Below are positions 1,455-18,337 of a DNA stretch of 64,000 bases, piece by piece. The DNA lies in contig JAAESG010000001.1 of the NCBI GenBank assembly GCA_024229615.1, positions 907 to 64,906 of the forward strand. Direction: 5' to 3'. Origin of the DNA: Gammaproteobacteria bacterium. GTDB lineage: Bacteria > Pseudomonadota > Gammaproteobacteria > GCA-001735895. The translations under genes were made by a program, and so were the position numbers. The notes under the pieces were generated by a model. The model had not been told where the DNA came from, did no database searches, and saw only the letters and a list, made by a program, of their open reading frames with translations. How positions within the stretch are numbered: the stretch's first letter is position 1; every line of letters begins with the position of its first letter.

Positions 1455-1610
1455 TTTAAAGGGCTGATGTCATTTTAGTATCGGCAACCGCTCCATAAGT
1501 TGTAAGTGGTTTGTGCTGACAATCAACCCTTTATATTCATCACTTTTAGACCAGGTTGCCTAAACAATAATTTCAGTGAATTTTAATCAGAAGATTCAGG
1601 AGAATAGGAC

Positions 1611-3128: not shown

Positions 3129-3225
3129 GCGATTCACTTCAATAGGTATGAGTACCCGGGGCTTGATGCTGGCCCCGGTCACTCGCTAAACTCACGGCTC
3201 CGGTCTTTGCCAGCTATAAATGTCA

Positions 3226-3263
3226 ATACCCCGGTCAACGATGTTGACCGGGGTATTTTCTTT
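3226..3263 (+). terminator. rho-independent terminator after the cytochrome gene
   Basis: Hairpin ATACCCCGGTCAAC-gat-GTTGACCGGGGTAT followed by TTTTCTTTC. Confidence 0.6.
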
Positions 3264-3334
3264 CGTGCATCGGGATTAAACTCTATACCTTGCTCGATCA
3301 TCCAGAGCTACACTTTCAATGAGGACATCAATCC

Positions 3335-4033
3335 TTGCTTCGTGTCATATTGTGGAAACTCGGTTCTGAGTGGGCGCAGATAAAAAGAATCCTGGCGCCG
3401 GGCACGGGCCGAAAAATATACTACTTCGCATTCGGTGCAAATCTCTGCCAGACGGTGCTGGATCTACGTCGGATTACGGTGTTCGAGGCATTTGACTTCG
3501 TGCTCGATGATGCAGTTCTGCGCTTTAGCCAATCCGGTTTCTACAAGGATCACGGCTATGCATCGGCCGATGCTGCTGGCGGAGAGGTGGTGTATGGCAG
3601 GATGTATCTGATACTGGAACGAGACGCGGAGCGCATGGACTACTACGAAGGGGTCCCTTTTCTTGGCGCGCATGAGAAAGTATTTCGCGAGGCGGATGAG
3701 TTTAAATACTTCTTTTATCGAGCCACCAGCATAAGCGATGGATTGAAACCCACCCGGGAGTACCTCGATTATCTGGTTACGGCCTATCGTCAGATGCCTA
3801 ATGTGCCGCAAACCTATACTGAGTCAATCGCGGCTACCGAGGTGCTCGAATACTTCATACCGTCGGATCAAACAGGAGAATTCGTCAAGGATCTTAATCG
3901 TTGGCCGTCTTTCATGCGCCCGCTATTGATTTACTACGAAGGGATTTGTCTAAGGCTGATCGAATTACTGTGGAACCGGTCGTTGTTCAAATGGATGATT
4001 AAAAGCTCGAACAAGGTTAACCCCGGCCATTAG
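3335..4033 (+). CDS. gamma-glutamyl cyclotransferase-like (AIG2/GGCT fold) protein; start uncertain (TTG at 3335)
   Basis: YYFAFGANL motif (family YFAYGSNL) and DYYEGVP...Y.R motif typical of GGCT-like proteins. Confidence 0.55.
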   Translation: MLRVILWKLGSEWAQIKRILAPGTGRKIYYFAFGANLCQTVLDLRRITVFEAFDFVLDDAVLRFSQSGFYKDHGYASADAAGGEVVYGRMYLILERDAERMDYYEGVPFLGAHEKVFREADEFKYFFYRATSISDGLKPTREYLDYLVTAYRQMPNVPQTYTESIAATEVLEYFIPSDQTGEFVKDLNRWPSFMRPLLIYYEGICLRLIELLWNRSLFKWMIKSSNKVNPGH

Positions 4034-4265
4034 ATTCGAGGCTTTCCGTTGTCCGACCAAAGGAGTACCGGTATAGTTGCCCGCCGTGACTGCCGACAGC
4101 AGGCATGACAATTGACGAAATTAGTCTGTGAGTGCTATGTATATACCGAAATTTAATACCAAATATGAGCCCTCAGTGATTGTTTTCATGCCACAAGAAT
4201 GCATAAAATTGAGTTTCCTCGCGTAAGCTAGAAACTTACCGGTTTACTCACTTTTGGTAGGAACC

Positions 4266-5459
4266 ATGTTAGAGAAAATTTCCGCAGCACCCGCCGACCC
4301 GATTCTGGGTCTCAATGATGAATTCAATAGCGATCCGCGCGACAACAAAATTAATCTGGGCATCGGTGTGTACAAAGATGCCACCGGAAAAACCCCGGTG
4401 TTGACTGCCGTTAAGAAGGCTGAAGCTAATCTGCTTGAAATGGAAAACAGTAAATCCTATCTGAGTATTCCCGGTCCCGCCGACTATGCGCTGGCAGTAC
4501 AGAAACTGTTGTTTGGTGAAAACGCACAGCTTGTCGCCGACATGCGTGCGCAGACGGCACAAGCTCCCGGTGGTACAGGCGGACTTCGCCTTGCAGCAGA
4601 ATTGATCAAACGTCAGCTTGGTGATGTGACGGTATGGGTGAGTGATCCCACCTGGGCCAACCACATGGGAATTTTTGCTGCCGTAGGCCTCGAAGTCGCA
4701 CGCTACAACTACTACGACGCCGCTGCTCACAACATGGACTTCGAGGCGGCCATAGGAGATCTGGCTAGCGCCAGGGCAGGGGATGTGGTGCTGTTTCATG
4801 GTTGCTGTCACAACCCTACCGGGATAGATCCGGATGCAGGACAATGGCGGCAGCTGGCCGAATTGTGTGCTGACAGGGGGTTGTTGCCACTGTTTGATTT
4901 CGCCTATCAGGGATTTGCGCGTGGATTACAGGAGGATGCCGAAGGACTACGAATATTTGCCGAGCTTTGTGACGAGATTTTTGTCGCCAGCTCGTTCTCG
5001 AAAAATTTTGGTATTTATAGCGAGCGCACGGGTGCCTTCACGCTGGTAGCTAAAACCAGTGAAATTGCTGCTACGGTTTTTAGCCAATTGAAAAGCATCA
5101 TCCGGGTGATTTACTCCAACCCCCCGAAACACGGTGGTGCGCTGGTGACGCATATTCTCAACGATCCAGAATTGCGTACCGAATGGGAGGCCGAGTTAAC
5201 CGAAATGCGTGCTCGCGTGCGTAAAATGCGTAAGCTGTTCGTGGCAACCTTGAAGGAGAAGGGTGTGACCACTGATTTCAGTTTCATCGAACGACAGAAC
5301 GGGATGTTTTCATTCTCAGGCCTGAACCAGGAGCAGGTGCTGAAAATGCGAGAGAACAGTGCCGTGTACGCGGTTAATTCCGGGCGTTTTAACGTCGCTG
5401 CGATGACCGAGAGTAATATGGAAGCGCTTTGCGTGGCGATTGCAGCAGTCGTGAACTAG
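4266..5459 (+). CDS. aspartate/aromatic-amino-acid aminotransferase (AspC/TyrB family, class I PLP)
   Basis: [38 protein letters not shown]...[15 protein letters not shown] matches the AspC/TyrB N-terminus and PLP-lysine region. Track start 4254 is a TTG; ATG 4266 is preceded by GGTAGGA. Confidence 0.85.
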
Positions 5460-5570
5460 TGAAGCCAGCGCCGGCTGGCTCACATTTCATGTGGCGTATA
5501 GCGTTGTATTTATGAGCCGTTTCGGGCCAGGGATTCGTGGGGAGATTTCACTGAATCCGATGCGGATTGC

Positions 5571-5751
5571 TAGCCTGCATATTGCATCAGCATCACGGAT
5601 GCTGACGCCGGACAGATGCGGCTGAACGCCGGGCTAGGGTTCAGGCCGGTTATAAATTGCACAGTCTCATTTGGTAGGAAAACCATCGATTAATCTTTCA
5701 TATTCAATGGATTATGACAAGGCTTGAGACCGACTGGTGAAATATTCAGGC
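5571..5751. repeat. MITE-like element, family 1, copy 2 (TAGCCTGCATATTGCA ... TGAAATATTCAGGC)
   Basis: Terminal inverted repeats and internal sequence homologous to 564-823 and, in reverse complement, to 13018-13146. Sits between the convergent aspC-like and VOC genes. Confidence 0.6.
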
Positions 5752-5820
5752 TCGGTGCTATTGCCTGAAATTGCGATGAACGGGTCTGATGCCAGCAGTC
5801 AAGCCTGGAATTCCTCCGCC

Positions 5821-6120
5821 TCAGACCGGTAAGTCGCTGACATGACTCGAATTGAATTTAATCAGTGTGCCCCCCGGTTCACGCAGTTCGAATTCGTCGT
5901 GAATGCTTCCGCGCTCAATTGCACCGGGTTTTAATCCCAATTCCGTATATTGACGGTGGCTTGCATCGATATCCTCGACCATCAGGTCGAAGGCTCCCTT
6001 GATGAGTTCCGATTCGGGGTCGGCGGTGAGTACCAGGTGTGTGCCACCACGCATTTCGAGTATCGCGAAATTATCAGCACTGAAAACCAGGCGCATGGGC
6101 GATGAGCTGCATAAACTCAC
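5821..6120 (-). CDS. VOC (glyoxalase/bleomycin-resistance fold) family protein, short
   Basis: Sequence LVFSADNFAILEMRGGTHLVLT...GTLIKF resembles a single VOC module; weak. Confidence 0.5.
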   Translation of the reverse strand: MSLCSSSPMRLVFSADNFAILEMRGGTHLVLTADPESELIKGAFDLMVEDIDASHRQYTELGLKPGAIERGSIHDEFELREPGGTLIKFNSSHVSDLPV

Positions 6121-6207
6121 TCGATTCGGTTACTCGCTCGGTGTGCATGGTGACATGTCCGATCCAGACAGGGGGCCTTTTTTCTCCAGTATCTTTCAAC
6201 TTCTGAT

Positions 6208-6828
6208 CTATCCGTTGCTATTTGTAGTTACCGCTTTTTCGATCAATGGCACTAACGACTCGGGTAGTTTGACGGCTCCCGAGAGCGCGAATTCATGCGC
6301 ATTAGCAGACATCTTGTTCCAGGTTTTTTGCACAATTTCTATCCATTTCTGCTCGCTATAATCCGCATGCTTGCTGACGAATTCGAGCATGTAGTGTTCC
6401 AGAAAAACCAGATCGGTGACATCTTCCAGTAACTGGGTGTCTGGATTGCCCTTGATATTCTTCTTTGCAACCGCCTTCCTGACGCGTTCGATCTCTGCGT
6501 CCCCATAACCTGCCTGCGCGAGCAATTCGGCTGCGGTGTTGGCCTGAATCTTGTACAGGTCCTTGCGCCATTGCAGGTAACCGATGCGGTCCATCGGATA
6601 GGCATTGCGAGGCGATTTCCAGCGTTCGATATGCTGCGCACGAATGGCGAGCTTCATCGCATCGTCGGCGACGGGGTTGTAACGCTGCAGCATATCCGAC
6701 ATGCGTTCGGAATAGAGCAATTCCTTGGGCCAGTCCTTGCCGTCCGCGCTAGCCTGATTCGGGTCTTCACGGTTGGCGGCGTCGATCAGCTCACGGGCCT
6801 TGTCATAAATTGATTGTTCTTGAGACAT
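6208..6828 (-). CDS. DUF4202 domain protein
   Basis: Strong resemblance to DUF4202 proteins (ANREDPNQ...KELLYSERMSDML...AIRAQHIERW...YPMDRIGYLQWRKDL...LEDV.DLVFLEHY). Confidence 0.7.
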   Translation of the reverse strand: MSQEQSIYDKARELIDAANREDPNQASADGKDWPKELLYSERMSDMLQRYNPVADDAMKLAIRAQHIERWKSPRNAYPMDRIGYLQWRKDLYKIQANTAAELLAQAGYGDAEIERVRKAVAKKNIKGNPDTQLLEDVTDLVFLEHYMLEFVSKHADYSEQKWIEIVQKTWNKMSANAHEFALSGAVKLPESLVPLIEKAVTTNSNG

Positions 6829-6920
6829 GAAGTTTTCTGTGGGACTCCTGATGGTTGAGGTGCAGCCAGATTATACCTGCTCGAGCTGGATTTCTGCGAG
6901 CCCCACTTTAGCAAAAGTAT

Positions 6921-7706
6921 TCAGGCGGGCTTTCTTCCTCTCAAGTGAGCCGGGCGCAATTGGCCCTGGTCGATAGCGATGATCAACTTGTCCCAGACCT
7001 TGATTTCATGTTCGAGAAACTCACTTCCCACCTTCGATGACAGCCCGGCATACAAAACACCGCCCAGTTGTTCACGCTCAAGGCGTGCCTGCTGACGGTA
7101 CCAGTCATTGCGGTCCAGAATTTCGATGTCTGCAAATCCGGTGCCCTGCAAAGCCCGTAAATATGTTTTGGCCGACGCGAGCCCAAAATCCAGGCCCTCC
7201 GCAACCAGGTAAGCCTGCATCTCGGCAGAAGGTTCACCTTCGTATCCTGCTAGCCAGTCACTGGCGACAAACCAGCCACCAGGTTCGAGCACCCGATAGA
7301 CGTCGTTGGCAAGGGCCTGTTTGTCCGGGATATGTATGATTGAATCCTTGCTGGTGACGATGTCAAAACTCGCGTCGTCAAATTCCAGTGGACCAGGATC
7401 GACGCAGATAAATTTGCTTTGCGTCTCCACCTTAAATTTTCGCGCGAGTAGATTGCAACGTTCGATCAGTGACGGGTTGACATCGATTCCGGTGACCAGC
7501 GCCGCGCGATGATGTTTGATTAGATGAATGTCTACGCCGCCAAGACCACAGCCGATATCGAGTACCGAAAGCCCTTCAAGCTTAACCCCATGCAGATAGC
7601 GGTCTACCTCTTCGGTTCCGCCCGGCGACATGAAGCCCTCTCCCCAGAGGGACTCGAGCAAGGCTATGAGATTATCGTCGTATTCCTGATATTCCTGATC
7701 ACCCAT
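6921..7706 (-). CDS. class I SAM-dependent methyltransferase (phosphoethanolamine N-methyltransferase-like)
   Basis: Methyltransferase motif I VLDIGCGLGG and post-motif acidic loop. ATG at 7706 preferred over the GTG at 7751 because 7751 lies inside the upstream terminator hairpin. Confidence 0.75.
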   Translation of the reverse strand: MGDQEYQEYDDNLIALLESLWGEGFMSPGGTEEVDRYLHGVKLEGLSVLDIGCGLGGVDIHLIKHHRAALVTGIDVNPSLIERCNLLARKFKVETQSKFICVDPGPLEFDDASFDIVTSKDSIIHIPDKQALANDVYRVLEPGGWFVASDWLAGYEGEPSAEMQAYLVAEGLDFGLASAKTYLRALQGTGFADIEILDRNDWYRQQARLEREQLGGVLYAGLSSKVGSEFLEHEIKVWDKLIIAIDQGQLRPAHLRGRKPA

Positions 7707-7750
7707 TGATTGTTTTTCTCTGTTGCGAGGATAGCTATAAATTTTAGGCA

Positions 7751-7810
7751 CCGGCTATAAAAGCCGGGGTGTGTTTTACCTGAACCTGCGGATTCAGGTT
7801 TTATTTTTCT
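7751..7810. terminator. two adjacent hairpins forming a bidirectional terminator region downstream of the Rieske-GltS gene
   Basis: CCGGCT-ataaa-AGCCGG (7751-7767) and CCTGAA-cctgcgga-TTCAGG followed by TTTTATTTTT (7779-7810). Confidence 0.5.
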
Positions 7811-7841
7811 CCCGATGGCAGCAGAAATCCTGCGCCAGCTA

Positions 7842-9461
7842 TCAATCGAGCGATACTCCTCCATAAGCGATGCCCGATAGATGTGCGATTTCACGGTCCC
7901 AGGTGGTCAAATCGTCGATACAGAACTGGTTCAGGTGCTGGTGACCGCAGGCTCTGGCCATAACCTGCATCAATTCGGTTGATGCGCACAGAAAATTACT
8001 CAACTGTTGAGCACCCTTGTCGATTTTCAGACGTTGCCGCAGTTCGGGTTTCTGGGTCGCGATGCCAACCGGACAATTATTGGTGTGACAGGCGCGCATG
8101 CCGAGGCAGCCGATAGATTGTAAGGCAGAGTTGGAAATAGCTATGGCGTCCGCGCCGAGCGCCAGCGCCTTGATAAAGTCAGCGGGTAAACGCAGACCAC
8201 CGGTGATTACCAACGATATGTCGTTGCGGCCTTTCTTCTCCAGATAACGTCTGGCGCGCGCCAGGGCGGGTATGGTCGGTACCGAGATATTGTCGCGGAA
8301 GATCAACGGCGCGGCACCGGTACCGCCGCCACGACCGTCGAGAATGATGTAGTCAACGCCGATCTGTAACGAGGCTTCGATGTCGCGTTCGATATGCTGG
8401 GCCGACAATTTGACGCCGATCGGAATTCCATCCGTGGCTTCACGCACTTCGGCTGCGAAACGGCGGTAGTCGTCGATATTATCCCAATCAGGAAAATGCG
8501 CGGGTGAAATGGCGGGCTCACCTTCATTAAGTCCGCGAACCTCAGCGATGCGTCCTTTAACCTTGCTTCCAGGTAAATGACCCCCTGTGCCGGTTTTAGC
8601 ACCCTGCCCACACTTGAAGTGAAAGGCCTGACACATGGCCACCTTGTCCATCGAGTAACCGAACCGCGCCGAGGCGAGTTCATACAGGTATCGACTGTTT
8701 GCCGATTGCTCGTCCGGTAGCATGCCACCTTCGCCCGAACAAATGCCGGTACCGGCGAGCTCGGCGCCCTGCGCCAGCGCAACCTTGGCTTCCTCGGACA
8801 ATGCGCCGAAGCTCATGTCCGATACGAATAGCGGGCGCTCGAGTAAAAGCGGCTTGTTGGCATTCGGGCCGATCACGACTTCAGTAGCGACGGGATCTTC
8901 ATCGAGTGCCGGAACCTTGTGCAGTTGCGCGGTTAGCAGCTGGATCTGTTCCCATTTGGGCAGTTCATCGCGAGGAACGCCCATTGCGCTAACGCGGCCA
9001 TGATGGCCAACCTTTGTCAGGCCGTGTTCGGCCAGGTGTTGAATATATTGGGTGTGCGGCTCTTCAGCAGCTCCATGGACATCCTGGTACAGACCCTGGT
9101 AGGCATGGCGGTTGTAGGGCTGCGGGTTAGCCTGTTCCCAGGCCCTGATTTCATCCTCATCGACCAGTACCTGACCGTTTTCGATCCATGACTCGAAACG
9201 ATCCAGCCGTTCTGAGTTGTTATAGGCGCTGACCCCGGATTTGTAGTTGTAGTCCCAGTTATGCAACCCGCAGATCAAATCATTTCCGTGAACATGTCCA
9301 TCCGACATTAGCGCGCCACGGTGTGCGCAGCGTCCATACAGAACTGATGCAGCATCATCATCCTGCCAGCGAATCACCACCAGATCGACCCCCGCGACCA
9401 GCGCATAGGTAGGGTCGAGCGGCTTCAGTTCGGAAAATTTGGCGATCGATATTTTATTCAT
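7842..9461 (-). CDS. Rieske [2Fe-2S] domain fused to a glutamate-synthase-like FMN/Fe-S (GltS central domain) oxidoreductase
   Basis: N-terminal Rieske motifs CAHRG...17...CGLHNW. Remainder matches glutamate synthase central-domain family proteins (FMN-binding GxGG region, LITGGLR, Cys-rich stretch). Confidence 0.8.
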   Translation of the reverse strand: MNKISIAKFSELKPLDPTYALVAGVDLVVIRWQDDDAASVLYGRCAHRGALMSDGHVHGNDLICGLHNWDYNYKSGVSAYNNSERLDRFESWIENGQVLVDEDEIRAWEQANPQPYNRHAYQGLYQDVHGAAEEPHTQYIQHLAEHGLTKVGHHGRVSAMGVPRDELPKWEQIQLLTAQLHKVPALDEDPVATEVVIGPNANKPLLLERPLFVSDMSFGALSEEAKVALAQGAELAGTGICSGEGGMLPDEQSANSRYLYELASARFGYSMDKVAMCQAFHFKCGQGAKTGTGGHLPGSKVKGRIAEVRGLNEGEPAISPAHFPDWDNIDDYRRFAAEVREATDGIPIGVKLSAQHIERDIEASLQIGVDYIILDGRGGGTGAAPLIFRDNISVPTIPALARARRYLEKKGRNDISLVITGGLRLPADFIKALALGADAIAISNSALQSIGCLGMRACHTNNCPVGIATQKPELRQRLKIDKGAQQLSNFLCASTELMQVMARACGHQHLNQFCIDDLTTWDREIAHLSGIAYGGVSLD

Positions 9462-9546
9462 AATAAAATCCGGCGACTAATTGTTAATGTGAATCGATGA
9501 CGATGCTATGACCAATCCGGGAAACTGTCGATCAATTAAATTGCCT

Positions 9547-10785
9547 CTATTCGATTACGACCAGACGTCGCGGCGCCTTGATCGGCAGTTCGGCGCTATC
9601 CTCCTTGAACAACAAGCTGCAGATATAGTAAGTGATCCCCGACATGCGTGGGCTGAAAAACTGGCTCTCGAAGTTGACGATGGTTCTGGGCTCAAAAACT
9701 TTTTCGGAATCTGAATGCGACATTTCATAGACAAAATTTCCGACCCAGTCCGGTGGAAACCCTATCCCCAATTCATAGCCACCTACCCAGCCCGCATCGG
9801 ACCAGATGCCGACATCATCGTAATACTGTCGGGCGCTGCGTACCAATTCTCCAACCGTCAACCCCGGTTTTAAAATATCGGCGATGACCGTAAACACACC
9901 TGACGACTTGTCGTGATACTCCATCACATCTTTGGGCGGTTCACCGAGATAAAACGAACGCGCCGCATTGGCGTGATAGCGCCAGTAGACGCCGCTGACA
10001 TCGACGTTAACCTGCTCGCCCTGCATGATCACCTTGCGACTCGCCAGGGAGTGGCCGGTATTGGCCTTCAGCCCGGATAGTACCGGCAGCGTGATCGCCG
10101 GGTTTTCACCACCGGCCTTCGCCATCGCATGAATCATTTCACCGTAGACGTCGAGTTCGGTAACTCCTGGCCGTATAGCATTCTTAGCCGCCTCGAGGCC
10201 GATATCCGTGATGCGCGCGGCGTGTTCGAGATATATGATTTCCTGGGGCGACTTGACCCAGCGCACTTCGCGCAGGATGTCGCTGCCATCGGTAACCGGG
10301 CATCCATTGCCTTCAAAAGCATTGCGAAATCTTGCACTGATGGCTGGATTCGGTCGGTAGCTGTAAAGCTCCATGCCGACCGTGCCACCGAGCCAACCCT
10401 CGGCTGCGAGTTCGTCCATGATGAAACCGATACCGTCGCGACGGTTATCGATCGGGAAGATACGAATATCCTTGGCGCAGGTCACGAAACGACACATGAC
10501 TTTTTCACTCGGTGTGTCGAACATGATGAAGTGGTCATGTTCGACATGTACCGCGATACCGCTCGTCGCCGGCCATTGTTTGGGACTTTGTGCCTGGTAC
10601 CATTCGCAGGTATAGCCACTGACATAGTAAAGACTTTCGGGCGCCGTCAACCAGAGTAGGTCGATGTTGTTGGCGGACATGTGTTTGCGTATCAAGCCGA
10701 GTCGGCTTTTGTACTCCGCCAGCGAAAACCCCAGTTCCATGGCTGGATTGCATTGTTCCAGTACCAGGCTACGGTTATGCCCCAT
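9547..10785 (-). CDS. M24 family metallo-amidohydrolase (creatinase / Xaa-Pro aminopeptidase / ectoine-hydrolase DoeA-like)
   Basis: Creatinase-type N-terminal domain plus C-terminal pita-bread domain with His/Asp/Glu metal ligands. GAGGGGA ribosome-binding site 8 nt before the ATG at 10785. Confidence 0.75.
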   Translation of the reverse strand: MGHNRSLVLEQCNPAMELGFSLAEYKSRLGLIRKHMSANNIDLLWLTAPESLYYVSGYTCEWYQAQSPKQWPATSGIAVHVEHDHFIMFDTPSEKVMCRFVTCAKDIRIFPIDNRRDGIGFIMDELAAEGWLGGTVGMELYSYRPNPAISARFRNAFEGNGCPVTDGSDILREVRWVKSPQEIIYLEHAARITDIGLEAAKNAIRPGVTELDVYGEMIHAMAKAGGENPAITLPVLSGLKANTGHSLASRKVIMQGEQVNVDVSGVYWRYHANAARSFYLGEPPKDVMEYHDKSSGVFTVIADILKPGLTVGELVRSARQYYDDVGIWSDAGWVGGYELGIGFPPDWVGNFVYEMSHSDSEKVFEPRTIVNFESQFFSPRMSGITYYICSLLFKEDSAELPIKAPRRLVVIE

Positions 10786-10899
10786 AACTTTAGTCCCCTC
10801 GCTTTTTATTGGTTGATTATCGAAAATTGGCCAAATGCGTTTAGAATATCAGGCTCGAATCCTTCTGTCAGAATGTAACTTTAATGGAGTGGAGAAATT

Positions 10900-12006
10900 A
10901 TGTCGGATCGACTGGCAGTATTTTTTGACGCATGCGTCTTCGACCACGATACCGGTCAGGGTTTTTTCGAAGCCAGGGCTTCACCCTATCTCCCGATTGT
11001 CGAAGCACATCCTGAAAATGACTTGCGTGCCCGGAATATGTATGGCGTGCTACAACATGGACCGATTGCCGAAGTGCTGGACTGGCATCAAGCAGAAATG
11101 GCCGAGAGGGTTGACCTGGAACGCTTTCATTCCGCGTCCTACATCGATGAACTCGAATCTATGGCAGATAACGAATCCTGCAGGATATCGGCAACCACGG
11201 TGTTTGGTCCTGGTAGTTATGATATTTGCCGAATGGCGACAGGTCTCGCTATCGCGGCTGCCAGTCACGTGTACACAGGCAAAGCAGCAGTTGCTTATGC
11301 GCTACTGCGACCGCCCGGGCACCATGCGCAACCGGAAATGGCCGACGGATATTGCTTTTTCAACAATATCGGTGTCGCGATCGAACATTTACGCGCGCAG
11401 GGATTGAAATCGGCCGCTGTCATCGACTGGGATGTGCATCATGGCAACGGTACCCAGGAGGGATTTTACCAGGACCCGGATATTCTGACGGCCTCGTTGC
11501 ATATGAATCACGGTGCCTGGGGTGCGACCCACCCGCAAAGTGGTGATATTGATGAAGCGGGTAAGGGTGCTGGGCTTGGCAAAAACATCAACCTGCCGAT
11601 GCCTTATGGTTCAGGTGACACGGCTTATCTCCGCGTATTTGATGAAATCATCGTTCCGATGGTGCGCGAGCATCGGCCAGAAGTCCTGTTTATCGCGAAC
11701 GGGCAGGACGCCAACCAGTTCGATCCGAATGGCCGCCAGCTACTCTCGATGGGCGGTTTTTATAAATTGGGCAAGCGTGCCAGGGTGTTAGCGGATGAAT
11801 GTTGCGACGGCAAAATGGTGTTGGTACAGGAGGGCGGTTATGCCATCAGTTACGCGGCCTATTGCCTGCATGCCTCGCTCGAGGGTGCGATTTACCGCGA
11901 GCCGAGTTTGCCGGATCCTCTGGTTTACATGCGGGAAGATACCGACGCGCTTGATGAATTTCTGAGGCGATTGAAACAGCGATATGCGATGGCGCTAAAG
12001 TGTTGA
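10900..12006 (+). CDS. histone-deacetylase-family amidohydrolase (AcuC / acetylpolyamine amidohydrolase-like)
   Basis: RPPGHHA and DWDVHHGNGTQ signature motifs of the arginase/deacetylase superfamily. GGAGTGGAGA ribosome-binding site. Confidence 0.8.
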   Translation: MSDRLAVFFDACVFDHDTGQGFFEARASPYLPIVEAHPENDLRARNMYGVLQHGPIAEVLDWHQAEMAERVDLERFHSASYIDELESMADNESCRISATTVFGPGSYDICRMATGLAIAAASHVYTGKAAVAYALLRPPGHHAQPEMADGYCFFNNIGVAIEHLRAQGLKSAAVIDWDVHHGNGTQEGFYQDPDILTASLHMNHGAWGATHPQSGDIDEAGKGAGLGKNINLPMPYGSGDTAYLRVFDEIIVPMVREHRPEVLFIANGQDANQFDPNGRQLLSMGGFYKLGKRARVLADECCDGKMVLVQEGGYAISYAAYCLHASLEGAIYREPSLPDPLVYMREDTDALDEFLRRLKQRYAMALKC

Positions 12007-12046
12007 ATCAATGCCGACCTCAACTCAGTCATGATGGAGAACTAAA

Positions 12047-13018
12047 TTGAAGCCAGTACTGGTAGTACAAGGGGCGCAGCAGATAGCTGACGTACCTCGA
12101 CTCGAGGAAATAAACGATCAGGTTGAACTGCGTTTCGCGACCACGGAGGATGAATTACGTGGAGCCTTGCCCGGCGCCGAAGTATTGCTGGGTTGGAACT
12201 TTCGCGCCGGTCTGCGCGCCGCCTGGAATAGCGCCAATGATTTACGCTGGATCCATTGGGCTGGAGCCGGGGTTGACGCCGCACTGTTTCCCGAACTGGT
12301 CGAAAGTAAAGTTCTGCTGACCAACGCGCGGGGGGTGTTCGATGTCCCAATGGCCGAATGGGTGCTTGGCATGACGCTTTGTTTTGCCAAGAAATTCCCT
12401 CAAAGCCTCGCTTTCCAGGCACGGTCCGAGTGGAATCACCGGCTTTCGGAATGCATAGCTGGAAAGCGTGTGCTGGTAGTCGGGGTAGGATCGATCGGGC
12501 GTGCGGTCGGACGCCTGTTGCGTGAGGCGGGTATGCAGGTCGAAGCCGTCGGACGCAGTGCGCGTGATGGCGATGCGGATTTTGGCCACGTCTATGCCGT
12601 GGATGAACTGCACGCGCGCCTGCCGCTTGCCGACTATGTGGTATTGATAACACCGTTAACGCCCAAGACGCGTAATCTCTTTGCTGCGGCTGAATTTGCC
12701 GCGATGGCGACCCATGCCCGATTCATCAATATCGGACGCGGTGCGCTGGTCGTGGAGGATGCGTTACTCGCCGCCCTGCACAACGGAGACATCGCGGGTG
12801 CCGCCCTGGATGTCTTTGTGAATGAACCCCTGGCTGCGGACAGCCCTTTCTGGACAGCGCCGAATTGTCTGGTTTCGCCGCATATGTCAGGTGATTATGC
12901 CGAGTTCGAAGAGGCTATGGCTGATCAGTTCATGACGAATTGGAACCGGTACAGACAGGGTAAGGCGCTCAACAATATCGTCGATAAAAACCTGGGTTTT
13001 GTGACAGGTTCGAACTAG
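12047..13018 (+). CDS. D-isomer-specific 2-hydroxyacid dehydrogenase, NAD-binding
   Basis: GVGSIGRAVG Rossmann motif and catalytic R/E/H pattern of the family. TTG start; stop TAG overlaps the first base of the downstream MITE. Confidence 0.8.
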   Translation: MKPVLVVQGAQQIADVPRLEEINDQVELRFATTEDELRGALPGAEVLLGWNFRAGLRAAWNSANDLRWIHWAGAGVDAALFPELVESKVLLTNARGVFDVPMAEWVLGMTLCFAKKFPQSLAFQARSEWNHRLSECIAGKRVLVVGVGSIGRAVGRLLREAGMQVEAVGRSARDGDADFGHVYAVDELHARLPLADYVVLITPLTPKTRNLFAAAEFAAMATHARFINIGRGALVVEDALLAALHNGDIAGAALDVFVNEPLAADSPFWTAPNCLVSPHMSGDYAEFEEAMADQFMTNWNRYRQGKALNNIVDKNLGFVTGSN

Positions 13019-13146
13019 CCTGAATATATCACCAGTCGGTCTCAAGCCTTGTCATAATTCATTGAATATGAAAGATTAACTGAAGGTTTTTATGCTCAGC
13101 GAGACTGTGCAACTTGTGACCGGCCTGAGCCCTATCCTGGCGCCGG
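13018..13146. repeat. MITE-like element, family 1, copy 3 (partial, inverse orientation, lacks the second terminal inverted repeat)
   Basis: GCCTGAATATATCACCAGTCGGTCTCAAGCC... is the reverse complement of the 3' half of copy 2; similarity ends near 13146. Confidence 0.55.
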
Positions 13147-13222
13147 CTTTCCCGTAGTGGAGAGCGGCAAAGGTTCGCTTTTCTCGGTTCTTCTTCTTTT
13201 ATCTCAGTGAGTTTTGACCGGC

Positions 13223-13552
13223 CTAGTTCCTGTAACAATCCGGCAGCGCGTAGCTGTCGCCGAGAAATTCACCGAACACTTCGGTTACCTGTGGGTGATT
13301 GACGGGCTCGCCACTTTCATCGATCAGCAGATTCTGTTCCGACACGTAAGCCTCGTAAGCCGCCGATTCGTTTTCGGCCAACAGGTGGTAAAACGGCTGG
13401 TCCTTACGCGGCCGAACTTCCTCCGGAATCGATAACCACCATTCCTCTGTGTTACTGAATTCAGGGTCGACATCGACGATGACACCGCGAAATTCGAAGA
13501 TGCGGTGTCTGACCACCTGGCCGATTGCAAACTGTGTACTGGTTATACTCAT
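13223..13552 (-). CDS. hspQ: heat-shock protein HspQ (YccV-like hemimethylated-DNA-binding fold)
   Basis: FAIGQVVRHRIFEFRGVIVDVDPEFS... closely parallels E. coli HspQ ([26 protein letters not shown]). Confidence 0.8.
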   Translation of the reverse strand: MSITSTQFAIGQVVRHRIFEFRGVIVDVDPEFSNTEEWWLSIPEEVRPRKDQPFYHLLAENESAAYEAYVSEQNLLIDESGEPVNHPQVTEVFGEFLGDSYALPDCYRN

Positions 13553-13626
13553 GCTTCAGATATAGTTGTAAAATCAATTATATCAATGCTTTTATCACCC
13601 ACATTCGAACTGTTTCACAGCGCTGG

Positions 13627-14517
13627 CTAGTCTAAACCGATTTTTTTACGCGCTTCATCGGGTCCCAGGACGCGGGCGCCGAGGCGTTCAATAATCTCGA
13701 CTGCACGCTCGACCAGCATGCCATTGGTCGCAAGCACACCTCGATCGAGATAGATGTTATCTTCCAGGCCGACGCGCACATTGCCGCCGAGCAGCACTGC
13801 CTGTGCCACCATCGGCATCTGCATTCTGGAGATACCAAACCCGGCCCAGATCGAATTCTTCGGCAGTGCCTGCTGCATTGCCACCATCGTAGCGGTGTCC
13901 GCACCCGCGCCCCAGGGGATGCCCAGACAGATCTGAAACATCGGTGGCGCATCGATCAAGCCATCATCGATCACGCTACTCGCGAGGCGTATCTGCCCGA
14001 GATCGAAGACTTCCAGTTCGGGTTTGACGGCGAGCTCCTGAACCATCTGCGCCATGCGGCGTAAATAGGGTGCGGTATTGATGTAGGTGTAATTGCCGCC
14101 GAAATTCATCGTACCGCAATCAAGACTGCAAATATCGGGTTTACATTCGACGACGTGTGCGAGGCGTGCTTCCGGTCCAATCATATCGGTACCGGGCCCC
14201 GGCAGAGAAGGGTCCTCCTCGCTCGGCACCCAGTCTCCACCCATGCCGGCTGTCAGATTGATAATCATGTCAACACCGCTGTCGCGGATCATCTCCACGG
14301 CTTCCTTAAACAGTGCCGGATCGCGAGAACCCTGGCCGGTTTGGGGGTCGCGTACGTGAACGTGAACTACCGCCGCTCCCGCTCTGGCGGCTTCGATAGC
14401 GGCATCTGCCACCTGGCGCGGTGTGATCGGTACCAGATTGCTGCGGCTGGTAGTGTCGCCGGCACCCGTGATGGCGCAGGTAATGATGACATCTTGATTC
14501 ATATGCGATTCCCCCAA
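13627..14517 (-). CDS. beta-keto-acid cleavage enzyme (BKACE / DUF849; 3-keto-5-aminohexanoate cleavage enzyme family)
   Basis: [15 protein letters not shown]-terminus and TIM-barrel BKACE pattern. Confidence 0.8.
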
Positions 14518-15028
14518 TAGTATGATCGATTATTCAATTTTCGGATTTTGTTTTATTTTGGTGATTTTGACCAGACCTTCATTCATTTACAATGGCTCCA
14601 GGCACTTTATCATTAATCATGTCACACCGGGTTTTGCGATTCTGTTTGCATCCGAAACGGTGGGTCGTGCTGCCGATGTTGTGATCTGGACCTGTCTTTC
14701 ATTTCGATAATCATCGAGAAACTGTCCAACATTCGCCAGGGTGCCAGCGTTTTTCGTGGTATCCGGATGGTGACAAAGACGGTCGCGCCGAGGCCAGTCG
14801 CGGCGATGAAGCTGCCGCCCTGAATCGTGACGGTTTTAGGTCGGGATACATTCATTGCGCAGTTCTTACTGAGTTCGATTTCGAACAATGCAGTGCGAAA
14901 TCGAACTAAAATCAATCAATTTATTTTCTATCCCGCTTTGGTGGATGATAGTCGGTGAAACAGGAAAAAAAACACTCCCTGATAGGCTGAGTTATAGTAG
15001 GCATTCAGCATCAAACCAATGTTAATAA

Positions 15029-16267
15029 GTGTCAAATCTGCAACTTAACCTGCGGTTGTATCCCTGGTTCCGTGCCGCTTCCGACGGGCATGCCTGGATT
15101 ACCGTGTTCTTTTTGTACATGAGCCAGCGTCTACCGCTGGACCAGGTGATTCAGCTTTCGGCGGTGTACTACCTGTCTGCTTTTATTCTTGAAGTACCAT
15201 CAGGATATTTTTCGGATCGCATAGGACGTCGCACGACATTATTGATGGCCGCGTCTGCACTAATTCTTGCCTATTTATGCTTTATCATCGGTGCGGGTTA
15301 CTGGTGGTTTGCAGCCGGTCAGTTTCTGCTCGCGGCGGGTATTGCGATGCAATCGGGAACGGATACTGCCTTGCACTACGATTCACTCAAGGCGCTGGGA
15401 CGCGAAAGCGAGTATGCCCAGCGTGAAGCTAACGCGGAACAGTGGGGTTTGATCATGCTTGCCATAGCGACCATCGCCGGTGGTGTGCTGGGTTTGATCG
15501 ATCTACGCCTGGCGTATGTATTTTCCTTATGCAGTGCGCTTACGATGGCCGTGCTGGTATGGCGATTTGCCGAACCCATGCATGCGCAAGAGACAACGGC
15601 TTTACCGCAAAGCTTCACTGCGGTTGTACTGAGTTGCCTGGCCAGATTGCGCGATCCATTGCTTGGCTGGATTCTTCTCGTCGTTGTCGTGTTATACGCG
15701 TTGGCGCATATCGTTTACGAGCTTTACCAACCTTATATTTCACTACTGCAATTGCCGGTCTTTGCGGCGTCGTCTTATGCTCCGCTCATTTCGGGAGTGG
15801 TCATTTCGATTTCGATGTTTGGCGGCGCCCTTGGTGCCAGGGCCAGTATTTCGTGGCAATCACGGCTGGGGCTGGTCGGGATACTGGCGGTGGCGATGTT
15901 GATTCAACTCGGTATCGTCGCGGCTATGGCGATCGCTGTGAGTCCTCTTGTGCTGGCGCTCGTCTGCCTGCGGAATTTCCCGATGGCGCTGGTGCACGCG
16001 CCGGTCAGGGCCGCAATTGCACCGCGCATAACGCGCGCTCAGCGCGCGACCTACCTGTCCTTACAGGGTCTGTTCGAGCGACTGTTTTTTGCCCTGTTGC
16101 TGCTTGGGCTGTCCTCGGGGCTGGAGCGGGGTGCCGCGGTGTCAGAACCGACATTGCTGAATATTCTGACATCGACGCTATGGATCGGAATTGCGCTGGC
16201 AGTGGCGTTGTTTATATTTTCGAGCAGGATTCGGCGGGTGCTGAAAGTAAAACCGCAGGCCGAGTGA
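15029..16267 (+). CDS. MFS transporter
   Basis: 12 predicted TM helices; MFS motif region SDRIGRR between TM2 and TM3. Start uncertain (GTG 15029, ATG 15119). Confidence 0.75.
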   Translation: MSNLQLNLRLYPWFRAASDGHAWITVFFLYMSQRLPLDQVIQLSAVYYLSAFILEVPSGYFSDRIGRRTTLLMAASALILAYLCFIIGAGYWWFAAGQFLLAAGIAMQSGTDTALHYDSLKALGRESEYAQREANAEQWGLIMLAIATIAGGVLGLIDLRLAYVFSLCSALTMAVLVWRFAEPMHAQETTALPQSFTAVVLSCLARLRDPLLGWILLVVVVLYALAHIVYELYQPYISLLQLPVFAASSYAPLISGVVISISMFGGALGARASISWQSRLGLVGILAVAMLIQLGIVAAMAIAVSPLVLALVCLRNFPMALVHAPVRAAIAPRITRAQRATYLSLQGLFERLFFALLLLGLSSGLERGAAVSEPTLLNILTSTLWIGIALAVALFIFSSRIRRVLKVKPQAE

Positions 16268-16279
16268 AACACTCGGCCT
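16258..16279. terminator. hairpin overlapping the MFS stop codon between convergent genes
   Basis: GGCCGAGTG-aaa-CACTCGGCC; no strong U-run, so weak. Confidence 0.35.
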
Positions 16280-16361
16280 GCAGGTTAGATCTCTGCATTA
16301 GTGAGCACCGATATTAGCGGCGTAGTGTCAGTAATGCTATGGCCACGCTGACATCGAAGGA

Positions 16362-17039
16362 TCAGGAATCTTCCGTAATCGGGATTAAAGAAAGTTCTAC
16401 GCGGCGATTCAGACGCCTGCCTTCTGCGCTAGAATTATCTGCAATCGGTGTGTCTTCACCAAAGCCGACACCTTCGACCCTGGCTTCGATGATTCCTTTT
16501 GATAACAGGTATTGCGCCACAGAATCAGCACGTCTTTCCGACAGGGCCTGGTTGTATTCCTCCGATCCTTTGCTGTCCGTATGGCCCGCGGAGACGATGA
16601 TGGTTTTATCAAATTCCTGTAATACCAGTACGACAGAATCCAGGACTTCGTGGAAGCTGTCATTGAGATCGTGACCCGCGGTTACGAAGGTGATATTTCC
16701 CGGCATAATGAGGTTGATGTTGTCGCCGTCGCGCTCTACGCTAACGCCGGTAGCGCGCAGGGTTTTCCTGAGTTCTGCCTCCTGGGTATCCATGTAATAG
16801 CCAATTCCACCACCCGCGATGGCACCGATACCTGCGGCCTGGAGCATGCGCTTCTTACGCTTTTTACTGCTTTCATCCTTGTTTTTAAGATAGGCGAGGA
16901 CCGCACCGACACCCGCACCAATGCCGGCACCCTTGGCGGTATTCGAGGTCTTTTGCTCACCGGTATAAGCGTCAAAGGTTTCGCATCCGGTTAGGACCGT
17001 CAGGCTGAATACGGTGAGTACAATGAATAGTTTTCCCAT
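16362..17039 (-). CDS. OmpA-family lipoprotein with glycine-zipper segment (YiaD-like)
   Basis: Lipobox LTGC. Gly-zipper GAGIGAGVGAVLA. C-terminal OmpA-like peptidoglycan-binding domain (...NQALSERRADSV...NRRVEL). Confidence 0.8.
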   Translation of the reverse strand: MGKLFIVLTVFSLTVLTGCETFDAYTGEQKTSNTAKGAGIGAGVGAVLAYLKNKDESSKKRKKRMLQAAGIGAIAGGGIGYYMDTQEAELRKTLRATGVSVERDGDNINLIMPGNITFVTAGHDLNDSFHEVLDSVVLVLQEFDKTIIVSAGHTDSKGSEEYNQALSERRADSVAQYLLSKGIIEARVEGVGFGEDTPIADNSSAEGRRLNRRVELSLIPITEDS

Positions 17040-17152
17040 GATGTTTTCCAGTGGTGAATCGCGATTAAAGATGAATAGACGAGGCGGATTATAGGCAATT
17101 TTGAGAGGCCTGAATTGACTATTATTTCACAAAGCCTGTGATAGTGTGAGCT

Positions 17153-17479
17153 TCACTCGAGCGAGGGAATCTTGTAGGTTTCCAGGTCGATGGAGATCAA
17201 TCTCATGCCGGCCAGAATCAATTTTCCGTGGTAACGCCGATCGCCGGTCGACGCGAACTCAAAAACGTAGCTACGTCGGAATGTCAAACCTCCGCGTCCG
17301 TCGCGCATGGCCGAGAAGCCAGTAATCACCATGCTGTCGTCGAGAAACTGCAATTCGAGTTGCTTGCAGTGTTGAATCGCAAGTTCACGTGCGCGACCCT
17401 TGTATACACCGCTTTGCCACCAGTACAGGGCAGCGGTACCGAGTAGTACCAGGCAGAGCAGGTTAGTCAAACTGAACAT
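17153..17479 (-). CDS. DUF3301 family small membrane protein
   Basis: N-terminal TM helix then conserved ...QLLDD..V...R..R...F.F... pattern typical of DUF3301. Confidence 0.55.
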   Translation of the reverse strand: MFSLTNLLCLVLLGTAALYWWQSGVYKGRARELAIQHCKQLELQFLDDSMVITGFSAMRDGRGGLTFRRSYVFEFASTGDRRYHGKLILAGMRLISIDLETYKIPSLE

Positions 17480-17566
17480 GAAGGTCTGTTTTAGTCCGGG
17501 TTCAGAAAATACATGATTGTAACTGTTGAGTAGTCATGCTCCCCGGTGCGCATAAATCGGGGTGGA

Positions 17567-18337
17567 TTACACCCCGACCGGGTCAATCGCCTTAACGATC
17601 GTTTGCATCTTGTTGGCGGCAATCTCGCTACCGTCATCTCGTTGCCACTCGATGTACTGCGAGCAAAACGCCGCCACTTCGGCCTTGCCCGAGAGAGCAT
17701 TGAGGTCATTTGATGTGCGTACGCCAAAGCCGACGGCGAGTGGCAGGTCCGTGTGTTTGCGAATTTCGGCGATATAATTCTGAAACTTTTCACCCCATTG
17801 CGTTTCATGACCGGTGACTCCCATGCGCGATACGACGTAAATCATGCCGCGTGACGCCCGGGTTATCCGTTCGACGCGTTCTGCTGCGGTATTGGGCGTC
17901 ACCATCAATATGGGTGCGAGACCCAATTCATCGAGCTTCGGTAACCAGGGTTCAATTTCTTCAACCGGCCAGTCGGGCACGATCATACCCTGAATTCCAA
18001 CCGCTGCGGCTTTTTCAAACAAAGCCTGTAAACCGTAGCGATACAGGGGGTTCAAGTAGCTCATCAAGACAAAAGTCACCTCAGGGTGACGAGCGCAGAC
18101 CTTCTCCGCCAGATCCAGTGTGGCCTTGACTGAACCGCCCTGCTTCAGCGCTTCGTAACAGGCGTTGACCAGGGTATGGCCATCGGCCACCGGATCGCTG
18201 AACGGCACCTGCAGTTCGATCAATTTAACACCCGCCACAGCCAAGCCGGCGATCGCTTTCTCATTTTCCTCGAGACTGGGGAAGCCGATGACCGCATGTG
18301 ACATGATTTGCAAGGTTTCATACTGTGCTGGAAACAT
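17567..18337 (-). CDS. trpA: tryptophan synthase alpha subunit
   Basis: LIELQVPFSDPVADG and GFGV...signature. Start moved to MFPAQYETL (ATG 18337), 2 nt after the trpB stop. Confidence 0.9.
   Translation of the reverse strand: MFPAQYETLQIMSHAVIGFPSLEENEKAIAGLAVAGVKLIELQVPFSDPVADGHTLVNACYEALKQGGSVKATLDLAEKVCARHPEVTFVLMSYLNPLYRYGLQALFEKAAAVGIQGMIVPDWPVEEIEPWLPKLDELGLAPILMVTPNTAAERVERITRASRGMIYVVSRMGVTGHETQWGEKFQNYIAEIRKHTDLPLAVGFGVRTSNDLNALSGKAEVAAFCSQYIEWQRDDGSEIAANKMQTIVKAIDPVGV

Follow-up and report, generated by a model that had tools for sequence, protein, structure and literature searches.

Do the seven enzyme genes that lie within 9 kb (positions 6921-16267) of the 64-kb window, i.e. 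the whole stretch of DNA analysed here, constitute one route for the stepwise degradation of an N-acylated or cyclic amino solute, as an earlier note had proposed? All seven were recovered by profile searches against Pfam and NCBIfam (Table 1), and the domain assignments of that note were correct throughout. When gene neighbourhoods were compared over about 90 related loci, clustering beyond chance was found only for the genes of the M24 hydrolase and the HDAC-family protein, plus that of the 2-hydroxyacid dehydrogenase (2-HADH) within this lineage. On balance, we lean towards a functional unit consisting of a two-gene M24-HDAC module with a lineage-added 2-HADH, in which hydrolysis by M24 would be followed by deacylation, and not towards a seven-gene pathway.

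Table 1. Features of the region in the window, with the evidence for each.
Feature	Position	Strand	Evidence
DUF4202 protein, 206 aa	6208-6828	−	Pfam DUF4202, 242.5 bits
SAM-dependent methyltransferase, 276 aa	6921-7751	−	Pfam Methyltransf_11/25
Rieske [2Fe-2S] + GltS FMN-domain fusion (Rieske-GltS), 539 aa	7842-9461	−	Pfam Rieske + Glu_synthase
M24 pita-bread hydrolase, DoeA/EutD-like, 412 aa (core gene 1)	9547-10785	−	Pfam Creatinase_N + Peptidase_M24
Putative sigma-70-like promoter of the M24 gene	10843-10871	−	CTGACA-N17-(TG)ATATTCT, consensus scan
HdaH-type (class II-like) zinc amidohydrolase (HDAC), 368 aa (core gene 2)	10900-12006	+	Pfam Hist_deacetyl
D-isomer 2-hydroxyacid dehydrogenase (2-HADH), 323 aa	12047-13018	+	Pfam 2-Hacid_dh_C + 2-Hacid_dh
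Short intergenic repeat	13017-13142	no strand	Inverted copy of 5627-5752
hspQ, 109 aa (housekeeping)	13223-13552	−	TIGR02097 HspQ, 128 bits vs cut-off 38
BKACE family enzyme, 296 aa	13627-14517	−	Pfam BKACE, 323.7 bits
Probable acyl-CoA dehydrogenase remnant, 24 codons	14579-14650	+	tblastn, weak match
MFS transporter, 412 aa	15029-16267	+	Pfam MFS_1

The M24 protein had been described as creatinase- or ectoine-hydrolase-like, and both relationships were recovered, with EutD/DoeA the best match by sequence and fold and creatinase second. The highest-scoring NCBIfam models were those of ectoine hydrolase, NF038259 (136.7 bits; cut-off 575) and TIGR02993 (107.4 bits; cut-off 613); these scores were 4-6 times under the equivalog cut-offs, neither of which was reached. 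The closest PDB sequence was DoeA (6twk; E=7e-23). In a Foldseek search with the AF2 model (pLDDT 86.7), the EutD/DoeA structures 6yo9, 6twk, and 6twj ranked at the top (TM 0.80-0.85, E about 1e-28; TM 0.82-0.85 and 22% identity for 6yo9 and 6twk), followed by creatinases (TM 0.78-0.80, 18-20% identity), with prolidases under both. A GY-x-[LI]-GI-x-[FY]-PPDW motif is also common to M24 and DoeA, and the modelled protein is predicted to have an EutD-like fold and active-site scaffold. When aligned with prolidase 1pv9, the residues that we take to be the metal ligands of the latter, D209/D220/H284/E313/E327 (a numbering that agrees with the motifs in the alignment), corresponded to D262/N273/L339/E373/Y387 of M24, namely, three of the five were replaced; among 36 M24 homologues, D262, N273, and E373 were invariant, and L339 and Y387 were at least 90% conserved. 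The protein was therefore rejected as a canonical metallopeptidase (Xaa-Pro dipeptidase or aminopeptidase P), for which the five-ligand set Asp, Asp, His, Glu, Glu is incomplete, and these results support an ectoine-hydrolase/creatinase-like enzyme instead of a peptidase. On the other hand, D262 and E373 are kept in M24 and absent from DoeA, and, together with the identity of only 22% to EutD, this means that its chemistry could differ from that of EutD. His, Asp, and Cys residues invariant in the N-terminal domain could, judging from the alignment, form an alternative metal site.

The HDAC gene product scored 269.6 bits with Hist_deacetyl (cut-off 27.9). Its H141, H142, D178, H180, D270, and Y314 were invariant among 11 orthologues (43-76% identity) and provide the His-His dyad, the Asp-His-Asp zinc ligands, and the catalytic Tyr (in an EGGY motif) of a classical Zn-deacylase. 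Among single-domain PDB entries, HdaH-type enzymes scored best (213-231 bits), including bacterial HdaH, dimethoate hydrolase, propanil hydrolase, and the P. aeruginosa homologue. With its intact catalytic residues, the protein resembles HdaH sub-cluster 1b (KpHdaH, P. aeruginosa HdaH, DmhA, and PrpH), which, according to PMC11532494, mostly comprises efficient lysine deacetylases and includes small-molecule amidohydrolases, e.g. DmhA and PrpH. An assignment as acetylpolyamine amidohydrolase was rejected because structures of that enzyme gave only 121-130 bits. The 2-HADH gene starts 40 bp 3' of the HDAC gene, and in L164 the two overlap by 4 bp at the HDAC stop codon; the protein has both Pfam domains but passed no NCBIfam equivalog cut-off, its best model giving 207.9 bits (cut-off 400). 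This gene followed HDAC in 14 related loci, all belonging to a gammaproteobacterial clade with M24 of at least 78% identity, and is thus a lineage-specific third gene of the module.

Among the 50 loci informative for pairing (M24 of at least 66% identity), the HDAC gene was located 40-190 bp upstream of M24 on the opposite strand in 24, derived from Gammaproteobacteria, Rhodospirillales, Parasphingorhabdus, Myxococcales, and Ectothiorhodospiraceae MAGs, and HDAC identity dropped in parallel with M24 identity. In one monophyletic M24 subclade, a DMFA2_C (dimethylformamidase-like) amidase of ~745 aa replaced HDAC in 12 of 16 loci, while neither amidase adjoined M24 in 14 of the 50. The HDAC gene was found again in the same cluster in a distant M24 clade (50-55% identity). 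Reciprocally, M24 was present in all five informative HDAC-anchored loci of at least 60% identity (L083 and L163-L166), and 16 of 29 long HDAC-bearing contigs paired with M24-bearing contigs when matched by length. L084 carried an HDAC homologue (55% identity) with no M24 in 2.6 kb of upstream sequence, and two close relatives (L010 and L012) kept M24 and 2-HADH without HDAC, meaning that the coupling is not obligatory or that those MAGs are misassembled. The M24 promoter motif was conserved in the HDAC-M24 intergenic regions of 10 loci (M24 77-87% identity). Among 137 neighbouring ORFs taken from 30 loci and classified with Pfam, no third partner emerged, no family occurring in more than four of them, and EutE-like proteins were not among the top families. 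These comparisons support a functional tie between M24 and HDAC as far as gene order can tell. No mention of a conserved HdaH/M24-hydrolase pairing was found in the papers retrieved by literature searches or in the passages of PMC11532494 consulted.

By analogy, the best reading is a hydrolase-deacylase bimodule like EutD/EutE (EC 3.5.4.44 + EC 3.5.1.125; also DoeA/DoeB), whose deacylase shares no homology with EutE. EutD and EutE are recognised as a bimodule by the juxtaposition of their genes, and ectoines are degraded efficiently only when both enzymes are present (PMC8739950). In both systems, the gene of an amidohydrolase adjoins that of an M24 pita-bread hydrolase, which carries a PPDW motif and whose active site is non-canonical. 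We infer that M24 would hydrolyse an amidine- or amide-type C-N bond of a small solute containing nitrogen, after which the divergently encoded HdaH-type zinc amidohydrolase would take off the small acyl group thereby exposed; in the same way, EutD opens ectoine to N-acetyl-diaminobutyrate, which EutE deacetylates. In this lineage, 2-HADH, presumably co-transcribed with the deacylase, would probably interconvert a 2-oxo/2-hydroxy acid product. There are also differences from EutD/EutE: besides the low identity of M24, the deacylase, of arginase/HDAC fold or DMFase-like, is no member of the EutE family, the two genes are divergent and not co-oriented, no transaminase, semialdehyde dehydrogenase, EnuR regulator, or ectoine transporter gene lies near the pair, and the host is a gammaproteobacterium of sediment that resembles sulfur oxidisers. 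The exclusion of the canonical ectoine pathway, for which the want of a DoeB-type enzyme had been cited, held: the neighbour of M24 is a PF00850 HDAC-family protein and not of the EutE/DoeB type. No described pathway fits the M24-HDAC pair.

Should the proposed mechanism hold, the principle of EutD/EutE, in which hydrolysis of a ring or amidine is coupled to deacylation, would extend to a substrate and an enzyme family that are both new, and a bacterial HDAC homologue would acquire a physiological small-molecule role; to our knowledge, natural substrates are established for few such homologues. With an HDAC fold exchanged for a dimethylformamidase-like amidase in one and the same genomic slot, the module would also clearly exemplify non-orthologous displacement. 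Many uncultured Gammaproteobacteria of sediments carry the pair, as do Rhodospirillales, and its substrate may therefore be an environmentally common nitrogen compound. More tentatively, the M24-amidase pair might be a widespread two-enzyme system of marine-sediment and soil bacteria from several phyla, degrading a small and abundant nitrogen compound for which no catabolic route has been assigned. Examples would be a cyclic amidine/imino-acid solute distinct from ectoine, or an amine bearing an N-methyl or N-acyl group; the enzyme that opens the ring or cleaves the amidine would then have been kept, and the deacylase swapped between the unrelated HDAC and dimethylformamidase types.

The order of the two reactions might also be reversed, the amidase (HDAC or DMFase-like) deacylating an N-acyl or N-methyl amide before M24 acts as a creatinase-like amidinohydrolase, or the two enzymes might act in parallel on substrates feeding one amine pool. 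Creatinase converts a guanidino compound to urea and an amine, and lacks the M24 metal site. The window protein shares this loss and the Creatinase_N + M24 architecture, and creatinases were its second-best fold match. Release of a methylated amine by dimethylformamidase is established enzymology. Methylated amines are released by DmhA of sub-cluster 1b as well, as described in the HdaH study. In addition, the pair lies within N-methylglutamate-pathway-like genes (GS-like, GATase, GXGXG, and GltS-FMN) in L027, and sarcosine-oxidase-like genes are found 7 kb from it in L165. However, these methylamine contexts are single loci, EutD/DoeA fits M24 better by sequence and fold, and no urease or urea carboxylase gene was present among the 137 neighbouring ORFs of the 30 loci; we regard this reading as unlikely. 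The window also differs from creatinase systems in carrying no sarcosine oxidase or urea-handling genes, and the amidase pairing has no counterpart in creatine catabolism. A peptidase function, in which HDAC would remove an N-terminal or side-chain acetyl group from a peptide before M24 cleaves it as Xaa-Pro/Xaa-hydroxyproline dipeptidase, agrees with the depositors' labels ('aminopeptidase P family' or 'Xaa-Pro dipeptidase'), with an equivalog-level trans-3-hydroxy-L-proline dehydratase gene within a few bp after M24 in L029 and L031, and with a gene for a family-5 (peptide/opine) solute-binding protein behind 2-HADH in five close relatives. We give it little credence: the hydroxyproline context counts as a single independent case, prolidases ranked below EutD and creatinase, the ligand replacements are conserved family-wide, and, as far as we know, all five ligands are essential to every characterised M24 peptidase. 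The loss of the dinuclear metal site itself argues against an Xaa-Pro peptidase. It is similarly improbable that HDAC is a protein lysine deacetylase standing beside M24 only through a shared regulatory region or joint inheritance. The prevalence of lysine deacetylases in sub-cluster 1b and the loss of HDAC from L010 and L012 would fit such independence, but the pairing extends across several classes and orders with co-varying identities, and an unrelated small-molecule amidase takes the HDAC position in one subclade, which a protein-deacetylase role can hardly explain.

That the entire span forms one catabolic pathway is very improbable, in spite of its seven domain families within 9 kb. The Rieske-GltS gene, which adjoined M24 in the window and in only one other locus (L014), had different neighbours in all five loci that were anchored independently (L001, L002, L167, L168, and L169; 84-89% identity). 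The protein was 82-89% identical across sulfur-oxidiser MAGs. The slot between M24 and the methyltransferase was empty in relatives, or held ribonucleotide reductase or other genes; Rieske-GltS is an occupant of this variable slot and not part of the module. L027 also contains GltS-domain genes and a BKACE fragment at most 10 kb from the pair, but the former are ordinary mgsC-like genes without the Rieske domain. The window BKACE is full-length; it scored 246.8 bits against the Kce equivalog (cut-off 382) and reached no other equivalog cut-off in NCBIfam. In eight relatives, its orthologue lay beyond hspQ after a 3HCDH-family dehydrogenase gene, in six with an ECH gene as well, and the BKACE proteins encoded after ECH and 3HCDH were 88-92% identical to that of the window. 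L164 has the full ECH-3HCDH-BKACE operon, with genes for an acyl-CoA dehydrogenase and an acyl-CoA synthetase running divergently from it. 3-Hydroxyacyl dehydrogenase and BKACE are classic partners, as in the cleavage of dehydrocarnitine and 3-keto-5-aminohexanoate. Unlike such operons, the 64-kb window contains no ECH or 3HCDH orthologue, and its BKACE gene has no tie to M24-HDAC. A short segment between the BKACE and MFS genes weakly matched residues 158-181 of the L008 acyl-CoA dehydrogenase (67% identity, E=2e-4), whose gene adjoins the BKACE operon in relatives, and is probably a deletion scar. BKACE is thus the orphaned last gene of a separate operon, divided from the module by hspQ. The MFS orthologue of L011 (81% identity), a locus with no BKACE, adjoins hspQ; MFS goes with hspQ and YiaD and not with BKACE, and is conserved flanking sequence unrelated to the module.

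The position of the methyltransferase is less clear. In 12 related loci, its gene was situated downstream of M24, as near as 20 bp or as far as 9 kb away, and ribonucleotide reductase genes on the opposite strand sometimes intervened; the methyltransferase gene was absent from all non-gammaproteobacterial loci compared. It accompanies M24, together with DUF4202, in one gammaproteobacterial lineage only; the order M24-methyltransferase-DUF4202 is tight in L163, and DUF4202 was also found in L009, L033, L056, and L164. Module membership of both is uncertain. Outside this lineage, none of the other genes of the span accompanies M24-HDAC, and comparative synteny largely refutes the whole-span pathway. 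Of the proposed cluster, only the M24-HDAC part (with 2-HADH in the lineage) held together in the neighbourhood comparison. Orthologues of Rieske-GltS, BKACE, and MFS did not co-localise with the pair, an outcome that the earlier note had itself named as speaking against a stepwise pathway including them and the methyltransferase; the proximity of Rieske-GltS, hspQ, BKACE, and MFS reflects local genome history. For sequence scans, this case is a caution, as a series of catabolic domains that looked plausible together over 9 kb did not turn out to form one pathway.

The region has a GC content of 0.51-0.58, the same as its flanks, and is bordered by the housekeeping genes trpA, trpB, and an aminotransferase gene. 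The hspQ gene and the repeats had been regarded as flanking the cluster, but hspQ and one repeat copy sit inside the span. The 126-nt inverted copies are 86% complementary, as found by repeat search and alignment, and, with the partner at 5627-5752, they bracket the block from g5821 to 2-HADH and not BKACE or MFS. A second repeat module of 65 nt has copies at 564-628 and 5571-5635. The repeat copy behind 2-HADH occupies the slot in which the relatives L004, L008, L014, L056, and L164 have the SBP_bac_5 gene.

ORF listing together with Pfam and NCBIfam profile searches upheld all of the domain assignments that the earlier note had made for the region (see Table). The proposal that these genes, among them Rieske-GltS, BKACE and MFS, act with M24 (ectoine-hydrolase/creatinase-like) and HDAC (HdaH-type zinc amidohydrolase) in a single seven-gene pathway was not supported: comparison of gene neighbourhoods split off Rieske-GltS, BKACE and MFS. 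The accompanying insight into M24 and HDAC was a good one, and the observation behind it is real; the pair co-localizes in other genomes. Base composition was even throughout the region, which was flanked by housekeeping genes (e.g., trpA, trpB and an aminotransferase gene). An Rfam search of window positions 4000-18000 (E≤1) gave no match and no riboswitch, and hence no substrate clue from that side; no tRNA genes were found within positions 1-24000.

Table. Coding features of the region and small ORFs of loci with a dimethylformamidase-like (DMFase-type) partner of M24
Feature	Position	Strand	Evidence
DUF4202	6208-6828	−	ORF listing, Pfam/NCBIfam profiles
SAM-methyltransferase	6921-7751	−	ORF listing, Pfam/NCBIfam profiles
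Rieske-GltS (Rieske + GltS FMN-domain fusion)	7842-9461	−	ORF listing, Pfam/NCBIfam profiles
M24 (Creatinase_N + M24)	9547-10785	−	ORF listing, Pfam/NCBIfam profiles
HDAC family	10900-12006	+	ORF listing, Pfam/NCBIfam profiles
D-2-hydroxyacid dehydrogenase (2-HADH)	12047-13018	+	ORF listing, Pfam/NCBIfam profiles
hspQ	13223-13552	−	ORF listing, Pfam/NCBIfam profiles
BKACE	13627-14517	−	ORF listing, Pfam/NCBIfam profiles
MFS	15029-16267	+	ORF listing, Pfam/NCBIfam profiles
YiaD-type lipoprotein	16362-17039	−	ORF listing, Pfam/NCBIfam profiles
~100-aa ORF of DMFase-type loci	L034 6959-7378; L035 13565-14032; L043 7400-7717; L049 9598-9897		

A scan of a genome collection with an M24 alignment yielded 80 loci (flanking sequence, up to 10 kb; loci in other genomes or MAGs carry handles such as L001), which were compared with the window by tblastn, subjected to ORF clustering and placed on an M24 tree labelled by partner. 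Partners were counted among 54 sequences with M24 identity of at least 66%, 50 of which had enough upstream sequence. The HDAC gene was located 40-190 bp upstream of M24 on the opposite strand in 24 of these 50 loci; in 12, the gene beside M24 encoded a protein of ~745 aa that bears the dimethylformamidase large-subunit domain (PF20254); and neither partner was present at M24 in 14. The HDAC-bearing loci were from Gammaproteobacteria, Rhodospirillales, Parasphingorhabdus, Myxococcales and Ectothiorhodospiraceae MAGs, and falling M24 identity was mirrored by that of HDAC (from 87/73% down to 68/56%). The DMFase-type loci formed one monophyletic M24 subclade (12 of its 16 members), nested among HDAC-type branches; Roseovarius sp. 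SYSU LYC5162 (L037) has a pair of this type. In a distant M24 clade (50-55% identity; L066, L080 and L082), the cluster again contained an HDAC gene, together with genes for an ADP-forming acyl-CoA synthetase, enoyl-CoA hydratase, ABC transporter, MDR reductase and LysR regulator. Conversely, M24 was the divergent neighbour of all HDAC orthologues looked up at 60-72% identity (L083 and L163-L166), and 16 of 29 long HDAC-bearing contigs were equal in length to M24-bearing contigs. A metagenome scan with the HDAC alignment, using the generic motif DWDVHHG, detected mostly paralogues (33-45% identity); only L083, L084 and L088 were at the orthologue level. As a third conserved partner, no Pfam family occurred in more than four of 30 non-redundant loci (137 neighbouring ORFs), and the module is therefore self-contained.

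In two close relatives, L010 (8934-11236) and L012 (170-3314), 2-HADH adjoins M24 and the HDAC gene is missing, which reflects either a real loss of the deacylase or an artefact of MAG assembly. These two loci and the 14 without an adjacent amidase are evidence against strict M24–HDAC coupling. A conserved ~100-aa ORF (MYEIDPSRTDLVEEFRNNPGGPYS...), often found alongside the DMFase-type partner, matched no Pfam or NCBIfam family and may be a small subunit.

M24, an EutD/creatinase-like C–N hydrolase, is coupled to an amidase, and an amidase of unrelated kind can take the partner's place in the genome; these two facts would be best accommodated by a hydrolase–deacylase bimodule like EutD/EutE (PMC8739950). 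The M24 enzyme would open or cleave an amidine-type bond, and the partner amidase would then remove the small acyl group produced; the order of the two steps and the substrate of the pair are presumptive. The M24–amidase core resembles this known kind of bimodule, and no description of it was found in the literature searched: queries on M24–HDAC pairing, on DoeA-like, EutD-like and creatinase-like proteins, on the Rieske–GltS fusion and on dimethylformamidase with M24 returned nothing relevant.

EutD/DoeA were the closest solved relatives of the M24 protein by sequence (E=7e-23) and also the closest by fold (AF2 model, pLDDT 86.7; Foldseek TM, 0.82-0.85), followed by creatinases and, lower, prolidases. 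Five metal ligands of prolidase were mapped by alignment to D262, N273, L339, E373 and Y387. Since three of the ligands are replaced, and these replacements were kept in 36 homologues (N273 invariant; L339 and Y387 at least 90%), the canonical dinuclear peptidase site is, judging from the alignment, absent from M24. In the N-terminal domain, C12, C60, C103 and H80 were invariant in the family, and D82, H83 and D84 were conserved at 90% or more. These residues and the WYQAQSPKQWPATSG motif (in the region of residues 12-106) had no counterpart in the DoeA alignment, and the conserved residues could constitute an alternative catalytic or metal site. The HDAC protein retained the His-His dyad, the Asp-His-Asp zinc ligands and the catalytic Tyr, and was nearest to sub-cluster 1b of the bacterial HdaH enzymes, which, according to PMC11532494, includes lysine deacetylases and the small-molecule amidohydrolases DmhA and PrpH. 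Promoter predictions were at the level of shuffled sequence (10 vs 10.6) and terminator predictions close to it (15 vs 13.7). The sole prediction to gain support, through conservation across loci, was a sigma-70-like promoter of M24 (CTGACA-N17-TGATATTCT, with an extended −10 element; 10871-10843, −), which ten related loci share; the HDAC gene showed no element of comparable conservation.

Association of the other genes with the pair was confined to narrower groups. HDAC was followed by 2-HADH in 14 related loci, each belonging to the gammaproteobacterial lineage with M24 identity of at least 78%; in L164, 2-HADH has a 4-bp overlap with the stop codon of HDAC. A family-5 solute-binding protein gene (SBP_bac_5) came next in five of the 14, in the slot occupied in the window by a repeat (13017-13142). 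The methyltransferase and DUF4202 genes accompanied M24 only in the gammaproteobacterial lineage: they were tightly packed with it in L163 (gaps of 20-30 bp), and elsewhere were up to 9 kb away or separated from it by opposite-strand ribonucleotide reductase genes.

Eight relatives had a BKACE orthologue (88-92% identity) on the far side of hspQ; 3HCDH preceded it in all eight and ECH in six. The full ECH–3HCDH–BKACE operon was present in L164, where genes for acyl-CoA dehydrogenase and acyl-CoA synthetase run divergently from it. BKACE of the window is intact but orphaned, ECH and 3HCDH being missing, and a 24-codon fragment of acyl-CoA dehydrogenase left at 14579-14650 (+; 67% identity, E=2e-4) is a probable deletion scar. 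In L011, which is without BKACE, the MFS gene adjoins hspQ. Rieske-GltS, whose conservation across MAGs was unusually high, adjoins M24 nowhere but in the window and L014; its neighbours in the five loci anchored independently were a Rieske–ThDP enzyme and an Na+/H+ exchanger, or phosphatase and PLD genes. In L001 (10001-13622) and L002 (10001-13619), the gene after Rieske-GltS encodes another Rieske fusion, with a ThDP enzyme (654-656 aa), and the exchanger gene comes next; the window has no such Rieske–ThDP partner. Near Rieske-GltS in L167 (238-3687) and L168 (4571-6223) was a small cluster with a BKACE paralogue (48-50%) and a P5C-reductase-like gene, and that of L167 additionally contained a PhyH dioxygenase and a 315-aa HDAC paralogue. 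A link through the BKACE and HDAC genes near Rieske-GltS in L167-L169 was rejected: they are paralogues (48-50% and 30% identity, respectively), and therefore no evidence for it.

Two short repeat modules were found between genes, one of 65 nt in two direct copies (564-628 and 5571-5635; 95% identity) and one of 126 nt in two inverted copies (5627-5752 and 13017-13142; 86%). At 5571-5752 the two modules are joined head to tail. Straight after the 2-HADH stop codon comes the 13017-13142 copy, which lies within the 6921-16267 span that MITE copies had been thought to flank; hspQ, also named as a flank, likewise sits inside. An island or composite transposon bounded by the inverted copies was rejected because the genes stand in the same order in relatives devoid of the repeats and because GC content is even.

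Weak leads to the substrate pointed in differing directions. In L027, a Pseudomonadota MAG locus (813-5199 and 11947-14183), the M24–HDAC pair stands between two N-methylglutamate-synthase-like sets (GATase, GXGXG and GltS-FMN), with a glutamine-synthetase-like gene, CN_hydrolase and an HTH-cupin regulator, a context that suggests methylamine utilization. Sarcosine-oxidase-like genes were near the pair of L165. In two closely related loci with M24 orthologues of 70-71% identity, L029 (11240-12271) and L031 (4343-5374), a trans-3-hydroxy-L-proline dehydratase gene follows M24 within a few bp; the dehydratase passes the NCBIfam equivalog cut-off (648 vs 550 bits), and no amidase adjoins M24. The CoA-ligase, hydratase and reductase genes of the distant M24 clade are a further lead. 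As to the host, flavocytochrome-c sulfide dehydrogenase genes were present in close relatives, and the Rieske-GltS protein was 82-89% identical in Ca. Thiodiazotropha, Sedimenticolaceae and Thiogranum MAGs; on account of these genes and this kinship, the host is probably a sediment sulfur oxidizer.
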